Shown: positions 13,245 through 42,931 of the stretch, piece after piece | Numbering within the stretch: the first letter of the stretch is position 1 | Layout: every line of letters starts with the position of its first letter | NCBI GenBank assembly: GCA_963706285.1 | Contig: CAVPLU010000013.1 | Span: 104,762 to 168,761, forward strand | DNA length: 64,000 bases | Origin: Candidatus Bathyarchaeota archaeon | GTDB taxonomy: Archaea > Thermoproteota > Bathyarchaeia > 40CM-2-53-6 | Reading direction: 5' to 3' | Notes under the pieces: generated by a model | Database searches by the model: none | What the model was told of the DNA's origin: nothing | What the model saw: only the letters and a program-made list of their open reading frames with translations | Made by a program: the position numbers and the translations under genes

Positions 13245-13371
13245 GGGGTTGGCAGCTGTCCAAGTTTCGCGTGGCCTTGCGGAACACACTACTGCCTGAA
13301 TCGCCTGGGAGATTCACTTCCGTGTTCGGAATGGGAACGGGTCCTAGCTCCCAGCTATGGCCGCCAGCTCC
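13245..13371 (-). rRNA. rrf: 5S ribosomal RNA
   Basis: GGCGGCCATAGC...ACCCGTTCCCATTCCGAACACGGAAGTGAA...CTGCC with pairing termini. Confidence 0.95.
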
Positions 13372-13802: not shown

Positions 13803-15053
13803 GTGAATACCGGACTTGCGGCAATAACTCAAGCTGGTTACGAGATGGGTTTTCCAGGAGCAACGAAAAACCAAACGACAGGCGTCGCACGCACCACATC
13901 CCAAAAACCACGATCCTTCCTGTTCACCTCCGAGAGTGTCACGGAGGGTCATCCTGACAAAGTCGCGGACCAAATCTCCGATGCGATCCTAGATGACATC
14001 ATCTCCCAGGATCCAAAAGCGAGGGTAGACATTGAGACCCTAATAATGAAGGGCACCGTCATAGTTACGGGTCAGGTCACCACATCCGCCTATTCGCACA
14101 TTCCTCGCATCATTCGAGGCGTCCTGCGAGATATTGGGTTCTATGATGCGAAGGTTGGTATCGACTGGGAGGCTTGCGGAGTCCTCGTCTCAATGGAAGA
14201 GCAATCGCCAGACATCGCGATGGGAGTCAATCGGGAAGATATGGGTGCAGGAGATCAGGGCATGGTCTTCGGTCATGCAACAAACGAAACCCCAGAACTA
14301 ATGCCCCTCCCAATAACCCTCGCACACAAGTTGGTTAGAAGGCTAGCGGATGTAAGAAAGCAAGGAATCCTCAAATACCTTCGACCCGACGGCAAATCAC
14401 AGGTGACGATCGAGTACCAAAATGGCACACCCAAGAGAGTGGAAGCCATTGTAATCGCAGCTCAACACGATGAAAACGTCTCAAGGGAGGAAATGAGAAA
14501 AGACATTATCGAGAAAGTGATCAAGCCCGTTATCCCGTCAGAAATGCTCGACGAGAAAACTAAGTTCTTCATCAACGAAACTGGAAGGTTCACTGTCGGC
14601 GGTACACTTGCCGACACAGGTCTTACTGGCAGAAAGATAATTGTCGACACTTATGGGGGAGTTGGAAGCCATGGCGGAGGCTGCTTCTCTGGAAAAGATC
14701 CCACGAAAGTCGACAGATCAGGCAGCTACATGGCCAGATACATCGCGAAGAATATAGTGGCCGCAGGACTCGCCGACAGATGTGACGTTCAGATCGCCTA
14801 CGCTATCGGTGTGTCGAAACCCGTCTCAGTGATGGTCTACACGTACGGCACAGGAAAAGTGCCTGATGAGAAGATTACGGAAGCGGTACTGAAAGTATTC
14901 GACATGAGGCCAAAGGCAATAATCGAACAATTGAAGCTTCTCAAACCCATCTACCGAAAAACGGCCGTTTATGGCCATTTCGGACGGGATGATCCAGACT
15001 TCACGTGGGAGAGGACGGATCGAATAGACGAACTCAGAAAACTCTGCGACTGA
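13803..15053 (+). CDS. metK: S-adenosylmethionine synthetase, bacterial/eukaryotic type
   Basis: [58 protein letters not shown]. Start may be ATG 13845. Confidence 0.97.
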
Positions 15054-15615: not shown

Positions 15616-15836
15616 TGGTGGGGCCGAAGGGATTGTCATGGCGTGCCGCCATTTTGAACCCTCGACTTCCGCCGTTTTTCTTCGTCTACGGGTTTCTCCC
15701 GCGCTCCGGAAGATCGTCATCCCACATGGTCAGCAAACCCGTTGCATGCCAAAGGCTTCTGGAGCCCTTAACGGGGGTTGTCCTGTCGTCATCCCTGGCT
15801 AGATTCCGCCGAACCTTGATCATCGCCTACGGCCCC
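15616..15836 (-). tRNA. tRNA-Trp(CCA) with five introns
   Basis: Removing 15804-15826, 15768-15784, 15694-15758, 15667-15685 and 15633-15652 gives a 77-nt cloverleaf GGGGCCGTAGTCTAGCCAGGGATGACGACGGGCTCCAGACCCGTAGGTCGAGGGTTCAAATCCCTTCGGCCCCACCA. Confidence 0.92.
15694..15758 (-). ncRNA. Box C/D guide in tRNA-Trp 37/38 intron
   Basis: ACGGGTTT-G-CTGA is complementary to AAACCCGT of the precursor (N+5 rule points to C39). ATGACGA box followed by CTTCCGGAGC, a near-complement of GCTCCAGAAG. Confidence 0.75.
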
Positions 15837-16037
15837 ACTGGACGACGACGCTCTGGCCCCACCGAGCTAGACTCGCACGCGAACAACATATTTAATGTTT
15901 CACACAGAGCCGCGTTCTTGCGGCAATCCAACTCTAGACGCCCGACAAGAAAAGCCATCGACCTTCGATGACTGCCTTGTGAAGAACAGGCTCGTAATCA
16001 GTTAGTTGCGACCGAGGGCCTCAGTCAAAGCGTAGAC

Positions 16038-16598
16038 CTATACGGAGAAGACTCTCAACAAGTCTGCTTTCGTGATTATTCCCGCTACCTGCCCTCTCTT
16101 CACTACCACAACTGCCGAATGGTACTGTAAGAGAGTCGAAATCAGAGACAGCGGCGCCTTCTCGTCAATCTGAGGGAAAGCCTCAGCCATCACCTTAGAG
16201 ACAGGCATACTTGAAAGTTCTCGCGGGCTAATCCCTGATATGAGTCGATCCATGATCACTTTCTCTGCGATGCTTCCGACAATATTTCGTCCACCAAAAA
16301 CTGGCAGTTGAGAGAATCCGCTTTCCTTCATTATCGCTGCCGCTCTTGAGATAGAATCGTTCTCATCTACTCCAACAACCTTCGATTGCAGGAGATCCCT
16401 CGCATGCGGTTCCTTTTCCCTCTGCATCTTCTCCAACGTATCAAAGATGGCTTTCGTCTTGAGATAGGATGGCTCAGTCTTTCCGGCCTCTATTTTCGCG
16501 ATCATTGATTGGCTCACGCCGGCAAGCCGTGCAAGATGCTTCTGACTCAGCCCGACGATGCGTCTTCGCTTTGAGATCTCCTCAAGCCTTGGGAGCAT
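16038..16598 (-). CDS. XRE-HTH plus CBS-pair transcriptional regulator
   Basis: LARLAGVSQSMIAKIEAG; GFSQLPV; GIITKADLL. Confidence 0.92.
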   Translation of the reverse strand: MLPRLEEISKRRRIVGLSQKHLARLAGVSQSMIAKIEAGKTEPSYLKTKAIFDTLEKMQREKEPHARDLLQSKVVGVDENDSISRAAAIMKESGFSQLPVFGGRNIVGSIAEKVIMDRLISGISPRELSSMPVSKVMAEAFPQIDEKAPLSLISTLLQYHSAVVVVKRGQVAGIITKADLLRVFSV

Positions 16599-42773: not shown

Positions 42774-42931
42774 GCCGGGATATGAGTGATAGTCTCGCAT
42801 CCCGAAGGCCGAGTGGATTAACGACCCATGGTGGTCGGTCTATAGGCGCAGGCCTTGAGTCCGCAAAATGCCGGTCTGGAGAGCCTGTGGCCCTTTGGGC
42901 CTCGGGGGTTCGAATCCCTCTCCCGGCGCCA
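42774..42931 (+). tRNA. tRNA-Ser(TGA) with three introns
   Basis: Removing 42782-42806 (8/9), 42821-42843 (21/22) and 42860-42881 (37/38) gives an 88-nt cloverleaf with long variable arm, G73 and CCA. Confidence 0.9.

Follow-up and report, generated by a model that had tools for sequence, protein, structure and literature searches.

How many pieces can a single collinear tRNA gene be cut into and still be the working gene of its organism? The question is raised by a locus in a 64,000-nucleotide stretch of DNA from a Candidatus Bathyarchaeota archaeon (contig CAVPLU010000013.1; the whole stretch is referred to as the window), in which a preliminary description, made from the sequence alone, had proposed a tRNA-Trp split into six exons by five bulge-helix-bulge (BHB) introns. 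We followed up this proposal by parsing the gene de novo, by comparing it with 71 distinct homologues, and by surveying the tRNA genes and splicing enzymes of the genome, and we conclude with very high confidence that the locus is the organism's genuine, functional, and conserved five-intron tRNA-Trp(CCA) gene.

Anatomy of the tRNA-Trp gene

The gene runs on the minus strand of the window from 15836 to 15616 (221 nt), a strand that the preliminary description did not give, and is made up of the following parts:

15616-15836, minus strand: whole tRNA-Trp(CCA) gene, 221 nt, with the encoded CCA at 15618-15616
15836-15827, minus strand: exon 1, tRNA positions 1-10, 10 nt; abuts exon 2 in homologues that lack intron 1 (e.g., L009, L010, L030)
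15826-15804, minus strand: intron 1 at site 10/11, 23 nt; central helix CCGT:GCGG, bulges AG/G and AA/T
15803-15785, minus strand: exon 2, positions 11-28 including 17a, 19 nt
15784-15768, minus strand: intron 2 at site 28/29, 17 nt; central helix GACG:CGTT, bulges AC/A and AA/G
15767-15759, minus strand: exon 3, positions 29-37 with the anticodon CCA, 9 nt
15758-15694, minus strand: intron 3 at the canonical 37/38 site, 65 nt; central helix CTCC:GGAG, bulges AG/A and AA/A
15693-15686, minus strand: exon 4, positions 38-45, 8 nt
15685-15667, minus strand: intron 4 at site 45/46, 19 nt; central helix CCGT:GCGG, bulges AG/A and AA/G
15666-15653, minus strand: exon 5, positions 46-59, 14 nt
15652-15633, minus strand: intron 5 at site 59/60 in the T-loop, 20 nt; central helix TTCA:TGAC with one mismatch
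15632-15616, minus strand: exon 6, positions 60-76 including the encoded CCA, 17 nt

Introns account for 144 of the 221 nt and leave six exons of 10, 19, 9, 8, 14, and 17 nt. Introns 1 and 4 follow the same exon context, CCGTAG. The junction of intron 5, which contains an inner hairpin of 5 bp and uses the T-stem as its outer helix, slides by 2 nt without any change in the product, and the BHB register picks 59/60. When the exons were joined, ARAGORN called the 77-mer as tRNA-Trp(cca), 77 bases; its cloverleaf is normal and its CCA end is encoded. In the cloverleaf of our own parser the D-loop has 9 nt and the variable loop 5 nt. The unspliced locus, on the other hand, drew no call from ARAGORN (0 genes in the whole window) and no RF00005 match from the Rfam library, which returned the 5S rRNA alone for the window.

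We also analyzed the region with an exhaustive parser, which walks back from the 3' end through the standard cloverleaf and may skip any BHB-like segment. It returned no solution with 0-4 introns and a single solution with five, and allowing up to six introns gave no better one. Scores from the same parser applied to the whole genome separate real tRNAs (35-64) from the next parses of real sequence (at most 17) and from the best of 32 reversed-sequence decoys (13). The single solution is the one put forward in the preliminary description, whose six exons and five introns are thus borne out by the ARAGORN call, by the unique parse, and by intron-minus homologues (see below). The intron share and the five junction strings that it quoted are all found as written, its spliced 77-nt cloverleaf is the one called by ARAGORN, and its expectation that standard annotation would miss the gene holds for both ARAGORN and the Rfam tRNA model.

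Conservation of exons and junctions among homologues

Homologues were collected through a DNA search of 41 related genomes, in 35 of which the locus was found, and through a pattern scan of species-representative genomes, which yielded 67 more contigs (56 named Bathyarchaeia or Bathyarchaeota, 6 named archaeon or Crenarchaeota, and 5 with bacterial names). The spliced sequence was aligned to each locus with a gap-tolerant aligner that is blind to BHB motifs. Of the 99 loci, 10 were removed because a contig end cut them or they were not Trp; the remaining 89 full-length genes comprise 71 distinct sequences, a set that is biased in that the scan pattern demanded introns at 37/38 and 45/46. The five bacterial-named contigs that carry this archaeal tRNA-Trp gene (L044, L046, L064, L089, and L091; Methylomirabilota, Acidoferrum, "bacterium," Dormiibacterota, and Acidiferrales) are probably mis-binned.

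Quantification of introns revealed five in 40 of the homologues, four in 11, three in 19, and two in 1 (n = 71), at seven sites in all, namely 10/11, the D-loop, 26/27, 28/29, 37/38, 45/46, and 59/60. Among the 40 five-intron genes, 34 use the same five sites as the gene in the window, with other families of the order included, and 6 have a D-loop intron instead of the one at 10/11. These counts indicate that the five-intron layout is not a one-off and is the common form in this group of Bathyarchaeia, with the gene handed down in many members from soils and wetlands. Across the 71 sequences, drawn from several families, the exons are almost invariant and it is the introns that vary in sequence and length. 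Wherever a homologue lacks an intron the flanking exons are exactly contiguous, and each of the five segments is absent in some homologue; the junctions are therefore proven, save for the small sliding ambiguity at 59/60. Since they are fixed by intron-minus relatives and not by the splicing motif, the circularity warned of in a recent preprint on Asgard tRNA genes (10.64898/2026.10.13.758758) is avoided.

The homologues also report on the splice motifs themselves. The central helix is complete (4/4) at 10/11 in 38/38 homologues, with GCGG or ACGG as the exon-pairing intron bases, and at 45/46 in 70/70, with GCGG; at 28/29 it is 4/4 in 18/51 and 3/4 in 33/51. Inner helices at 10/11, 28/29, 45/46, and 59/60 keep their pairing through compensatory substitutions. 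At 10/11, pair 2 is AT in 17, GC in 10, TA in 2, GT in 2, and CG in 1 of 37 homologues; at 45/46, pair 2 is AT in 18 and GC in 15, with other pairs in addition; at 28/29, pair 1 is paired in 38/38 and pair 2 in 36/38, with six pair types; and at 59/60, pairs 1-3 are paired in 38/38. The intron at 37/38, which is present in 71/71 homologues from a collection whose pattern demanded it, has no adjacent inner helix, and the anticodon stem serves as its outer helix. The substitution patterns indicate that the BHB motif is under evolutionary constraint.

Splice motifs and folding of the precursor

In the register used here, four exon bases pair with the four bases found just before the final two of the intron, with a 3-base bulge on each side. 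The central helix is 4/4 in introns 1-4 and 3/4 in intron 5, and the inner (h') and outer (h) helices measure 3 and 2 in intron 1, 2 and 1 in intron 2, 0 and 3 in intron 3, 2 and 0 in intron 4, and 5 and 5 in intron 5. The same score was reached at random genomic site-and-length pairs in 0.085%-1.45% of 40,000 draws per intron. A strict hBHBh' motif, in which both flanking helices have at least 2 bp, is formed by introns 1 and 5 only; introns 2, 3, and 4 are relaxed motifs (the outer helix has 1 bp in intron 2 and 0 in intron 4, and the inner helix has 0 in intron 3). The preliminary description had claimed BHB geometry at every junction, which holds for the register at all five, with the relaxed motifs of introns 2, 3, and 4 as a qualification.

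Folding of the full 221-nt precursor gave -85.8 kcal/mol (z = -2.35) with the acceptor stem formed; the five BHB motifs were not displayed together in this fold, which carries little weight either way. Local folds forced into the BHB form were stable (-3.5 to -23.0 kcal/mol), with introns 2 and 4 being the weakest (-3.5 and -4.4 kcal/mol).

Census of tRNA genes in the genome

The genome is a draft, estimated to be 89% complete and 7.5% contaminated. We ran the parser with a CCA end required and then without this requirement on seeds outside long open reading frames (ORFs), which gave 40 tRNA loci with 38 distinct mature sequences, all of them interrupted, in comparison to 16 Rfam tRNA matches. 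Of these 38 genes, 8 have one intron, 13 have two, 10 have three, 6 have four, and 1 has five, for a total of 93 introns with a mean of 2.45 per gene and a median length of 21 nt. Introns are common at 37/38, 30/31, the D-loop, 21/22, and the T-loop. Most parsed genes encode CCA, and at least 7 do not. A looser BHB filter gave no further tRNA, with 33 loci in both runs. The gene for tRNA-Trp is the only five-intron gene among the parsed loci, and none needs six.

This census is a lower bound: several anticodons are missing, including those for Asp, Tyr, and the initiator, and at least four tRNA-like loci flagged by ARAGORN or Rfam stayed unparsed (contig C4, 424466-424581 and 191214-191342; contig C16, 56049-56190; contig C1, 1-150). 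Another gene with five or more introns is possible in the genome; the four unparsed spans (116-150 nt) leave room for fewer. The tRNA-Trp gene has the sole CCA anticodon among the 40 parsed loci, and blastn-short with the spliced sequence revealed no second locus, multi-exon or other, in the genome. The check called for in the preliminary description, whether this is the only tRNA-Trp, thus came out in its favor within an 89%-complete draft. Two "Trp" calls made by ARAGORN in intron mode on contigs C1 and C3 were rejected, as the parser resolves them as Arg(TCG) and Gly(TCC) with three introns each.

Two side observations belong to the census. A tRNA-Ser(TGA) gene lies in the window at 42774-42931 on the plus strand, with three introns (25, 23, and 22 nt), an encoded CCA, and a parser score of 44, and was missed by ARAGORN and Rfam. 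Identical tRNA genes for Met (CAT) and Thr (GGT) are found on both C4 and C20, and near-identical genes for Arg (TCG) on C1 and C6, which fits the 7.5% contamination or strain duplication.

Splicing enzymes and RNA data

The genome encodes two EndA paralogues (186 and 174 aa), each with PF01974 and PF02778, in the regions C12, 149004-149243, and C6, 75200-75433. The best PDB match of the 186-aa paralogue is to EndA chains (E = 4e-40), which we take to be of the crenarchaeal type, and by sequence reading it has the Tyr/His/Lys motif context. The 174-aa paralogue is more divergent, with His in place of the motif Tyr of the 186-aa protein. The two would fit a heterotetrameric enzyme, probably with one catalytic and one non-catalytic subunit. 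Heterotetrameric EndA is, in the accessible text of the source, one of two types, (alpha-beta)2 and epsilon2, that cut non-canonical introns (PMC5829648). RtcB is also present (PF01139, E = 2.6e-97 and 1.6e-77; C4, 105729-107043, minus strand), in adjacent overlapping frames that cover profile positions 1-243 and 236-426, which points to a frameshift, a split gene, or an error in the assembly.

For RNA we turned to assembled contigs of public metatranscriptomes from close relatives, in which DNA carry-over is possible. Three of the four runs contained contigs of 153-164 nt with 90-99% identity to the locus, all within 15644-15838, all of unspliced tRNA-Trp, and none covering the flanks; the fourth run gave nothing. 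These contigs are a weak hint of a precursor transcript in close relatives and are uninformative on splicing.

Guide-RNA-like core of the 37/38 intron

An alignment of 61 distinct 37/38 introns revealed a variable 5' third and a conserved core that consists of GGGTTTG and CNGA, a short hairpin, GGRATGANGA, ~12 nt with GGAGCG, and a loosely D-like tetramer, in this order. In intron 3 of the window the corresponding elements are:

15730-15740, minus strand: antisense element GGGTTTG followed by the D'-like CTGA, a conserved block; the 5th base upstream of the box pairs with C39
15720-15714, 15713-15702, and 15701-15698, minus strand: C'-like ATGACGA, 12-nt antisense element, and degenerate D-like CGGG, respectively

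The first antisense element pairs with the intron end and positions 38-43, and the second, which targets the anticodon loop, pairs with positions 31-37 with a constant mismatch at A36; C34 is the partner of the 5th base upstream of the D-like box. By reading of the alignment, both C34 and C39 lie opposite the fifth base that precedes a D or D' box, as expected for a guide RNA, and in some homologues (e.g., L040, L069, L009) the D-like box reads CTGA, CAGA, or CGGA. Fibrillarin and Nop5 genes lie side by side in the genome. Speaking against a guide, we found no terminal C box at the 5' end of the intron, whose D box is moreover degenerate, so that strict membership in the box C/D class fails. 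The Rfam match to sR40 over the D'-side block is weak (14.8 bits; threshold 50); sR40 is presumably the guide in the tRNA-Trp intron of Pyrococcus. We conclude that the 37/38 intron appears to carry a core resembling a box C'/D' guide RNA.

Leader, putative promoter, and possible intron copies

Two further elements lie upstream of the gene:

15855-15863, minus strand: 5' leader element GGTGGGGCC, a copy of the 5' strand of the acceptor stem
15889-15900, minus strand: putative TATA-like box AAACATTAAATA, a conserved block 53-64 nt upstream of G1

The leader element GGTGGGGCC can pair without a mismatch with tRNA positions 67-75, which comprise the 3' strand of the acceptor stem, the discriminator, and the CC of CCA. 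A stretch of at least 7 nt complementary to positions 66-75 occurs in the 60-nt leader of 50/70 homologues in comparison to 1/70 control windows, and shorter acceptor-strand copies are found upstream of 7/40 tRNA genes in the genome in comparison to 0/40 random windows. We considered this repeat as a sixth intron and rejected it upon inspection: the copies are direct repeats without a central helix, and no BHB register keeps the mature sequence. The TATA-like block is kept as AAACATTA[A/T]ATA in six same-genus homologues, and would be the promoter that gives a leader of ~35-40 nt.

In one homologue (L018; G031, C5) the 10/11 and 45/46 introns are identical at 16/17 bases and both follow the exon hexamer CCGTAG, suggestive of recent copying between the two sites. 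General copying between the two sites was rejected, as the mean identity of the two introns within a gene (0.55) is close to that across genes (0.53) and only L018, perhaps along with L017 (0.75), stands out; the identity of 0.65 in the gene of the window is not above background.

Surroundings of the locus

On one side of the tRNA-Trp gene lies a SAM synthetase gene (13803-15053, plus strand), on the other an HTH/CBS gene (16038-16598, minus strand). The locus is overlapped by two mechanically called ORFs that have no Pfam match. A 5S rRNA gene (13247-13368, minus strand; 80.6 bits) shares the strand of the tRNA-Trp gene at a distance of 2.2 kb.

Proposed course of processing

From the observed gene anatomy, junctions, conservation, and enzymes, we infer the following for transcription start, cleavage, ligation, splicing order, and methylation of this tRNA. 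Most likely, a precursor of ~260 nt with all five introns would be made from the TATA-like promoter. EndA would cut both bulges of each BHB or relaxed BHB motif, with each 3-nt bulge holding a cut site, and RtcB would join the six exons of 8-19 nt into the 77-nt tRNA. The motifs of introns 1 and 4 draw on bases 5-8 and 40-43, which in the mature tRNA are part of the acceptor and anticodon stems, so that the precursor would have to refold as splicing proceeds. Under a broader account that we hold to be rather doubtful as a whole (see Discussion), pairing of the leader with the 3' side of the acceptor stem, the discriminator, and the CC could keep the precursor open such that exon bases 5-8 and 40-43 form splice motifs before the acceptor and anticodon stems close, which would amount to a built-in processing order. 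The antisense elements of the guide-like core would place C34 and C39 at the methylation position. Under the same broader account, the 10/11 intron would stem from the 45/46 intron copied into a second CCGTAG site.

Discussion

Is the locus then the working tRNA-Trp gene? Several observations weigh against this conclusion. Introns 3 and 4 each lack one flanking helix, and no BHB-constrained fold is the local minimum at 37°C, all being 1.4 to 8.5 kcal/mol above it. RtcB is present in two overlapping frames. An intact tRNA-Trp may lie in the part missing from the 89%-complete draft, and no spliced junction, circular intron, or mature tRNA was seen in the assembled contigs of the four runs, although with assembled contigs as the only RNA data the lack of such joints does not show absence of splicing. 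The incomplete draft and the missing spliced reads would be consistent with a decaying tRNA pseudogene that has taken up insertions while a working tRNA-Trp resides elsewhere, e.g., in the unassembled part of the genome. Decay is, however, hard to reconcile with the near-invariance of the exons, next to diverging introns, in 71 distinct homologues of several families, with the conservation of the exon-pairing intron bases, and with the covariation of the inner helices. Moreover, no other Trp locus was found in the genome, and the more complete relatives that were searched give the interrupted gene as their match (in G039, for example, listed as 100% complete, the one match), such that we see next to no chance of a pseudogene.

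It could also be argued that fewer than five segments are removed and that one or more is retained as an expansion, resulting in a long and unusual tRNA. The weak motifs of introns 2 and 4, with their shallow forced folds, would allow this, and standard tools leave such insertions in "mature" Asgard tRNAs, as stated in the accessible text of the Asgard preprint (10.64898/2026.10.13.758758). Yet for each of the five segments there is a homologue that lacks it and has the exons joined exactly, there is no cloverleaf parse with four or fewer removals, and all five lie within a stem or a conserved loop, so that a retained one would disrupt the D-stem, the anticodon stem, or the T-loop; we consider retention very improbable. 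The leader raises a different possibility, namely that the acceptor-strand copy marks a sixth processing element, either a further intron-like segment or a site of EndA-dependent 5' maturation. Its recurrence in 50/70 homologues and, in shorter form, at 7/40 tRNA genes, above the respective controls, speaks for some such role. The would-be strands of its central helix are identical and cannot pair, though, no BHB register keeps the mature sequence, and the parser found nothing better with up to six introns, which leaves this explanation a slim chance. A genuine gene from which five introns are removed is thus the reading that we carry forward.

Going further, one may join a Bathyarchaeia intron hot spot, a five-intron tRNA-Trp spanning several families, processing ordered by the leader, and copying of the 45/46 intron into 10/11 into a single account; we regard this combination as possible and, taken as a whole, rather doubtful. 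Were it true, this order of Bathyarchaeia from soils and wetlands would join the Thermoproteales and three Asgard families as one more independent hot spot of tRNA intron proliferation, and no collinear tRNA gene whose junctions are all proven by comparison would be more fragmented than its tRNA-Trp. The locus shows the five-intron extreme in Bathyarchaeia, a very widespread archaeal group, and the 71 homologues with two to five introns offer a natural series for intron gain, loss, and splicing order. As ARAGORN found 0 tRNAs in a 64-kb window that holds at least 2, and Rfam found 16 in the genome where the parser found 40, the tRNA counts by which Bathyarchaeia bins are graded for quality are likely too low.

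Comparison with known systems

The preliminary description gave up to three introns for the multi-intron tRNAs of the Thermoproteales, which agrees with the accessible text of the tRNAscan-SE 2.0 paper, the standard reference of the field, where three is the upper limit for archaeal tRNA genes. The accessible text of the October 2026 Asgard preprint goes further and is the only report of five, with up to five intervening sequences in one tRNA gene and means of 2.0-2.4 per tRNA gene in three Asgard families, next to 1.54 in Pyrobaculum calidifontis, the richest genome given; it sees no general sign of intron copying and has no mention of Bathyarchaeia (10.64898/2026.10.13.758758). For wetland Asgard archaea, the accessible part of a 2024 report in Nat Commun gives 92-95% of tRNA genes with introns and over half with several. 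Full-text literature searches found no paper describing tRNA introns in Bathyarchaeia, and a full-text search on archaeal tRNA genes with four or five introns gave a red-alga paper and unrelated work only. The suggestion that this tRNA is among the most fragmented cis-encoded ones therefore stands insofar as five introns is the top count, and it is a tie with the accessible Asgard data and not a record. The splicing logic of the gene is the standard archaeal one; what appears undescribed so far is the lineage, comparative support of this depth, and the intron load of Bathyarchaeia across the genome.

In comparison to the Thermoproteales (Pyrobaculum calidifontis, Thermofilum pendens), the likeness lies in BHB or relaxed BHB introns, a two-subunit EndA, and related introns at sites that share exon context, whereas the gene in the window has five introns and not at most three, the genome has ~2.45 introns per parsed gene in comparison to the 1.54 in the accessible preprint text, and the host lineage is Bathyarchaeia. 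Asgard archaea, as far as the accessible text goes, resemble this genome in having nearly every tRNA gene interrupted, a matching mean load (2.0-2.4 per gene), up to five introns per gene, and many D-arm introns that annotators miss; they differ in belonging to another phylum-level lineage and in giving no general sign of intron copying, next to the near-identical introns at two sites found here in one homologue (L018). Split and permuted tRNAs (Nanoarchaeum equitans, Caldivirga maquilingensis, Cyanidioschyzon merolae) are likewise rejoined from small pieces at BHB motifs, but their pieces lie at separate loci or in permuted order, while the six exons here are collinear in one 221-nt gene. Finally, in the tRNA-Trp 37/38 intron guide of Euryarchaeota, antisense elements put positions 34 and 39 at the methylation site, according to the accessible text of its source (PMC11408192). 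The core described above sits in the same 37/38 intron of the same tRNA and would put the same two positions at the methylation site, whereas the introns here, at 57-83 nt, are shorter, their internal C'/D'-like pair alone is clear, and the host is not a euryarchaeon.

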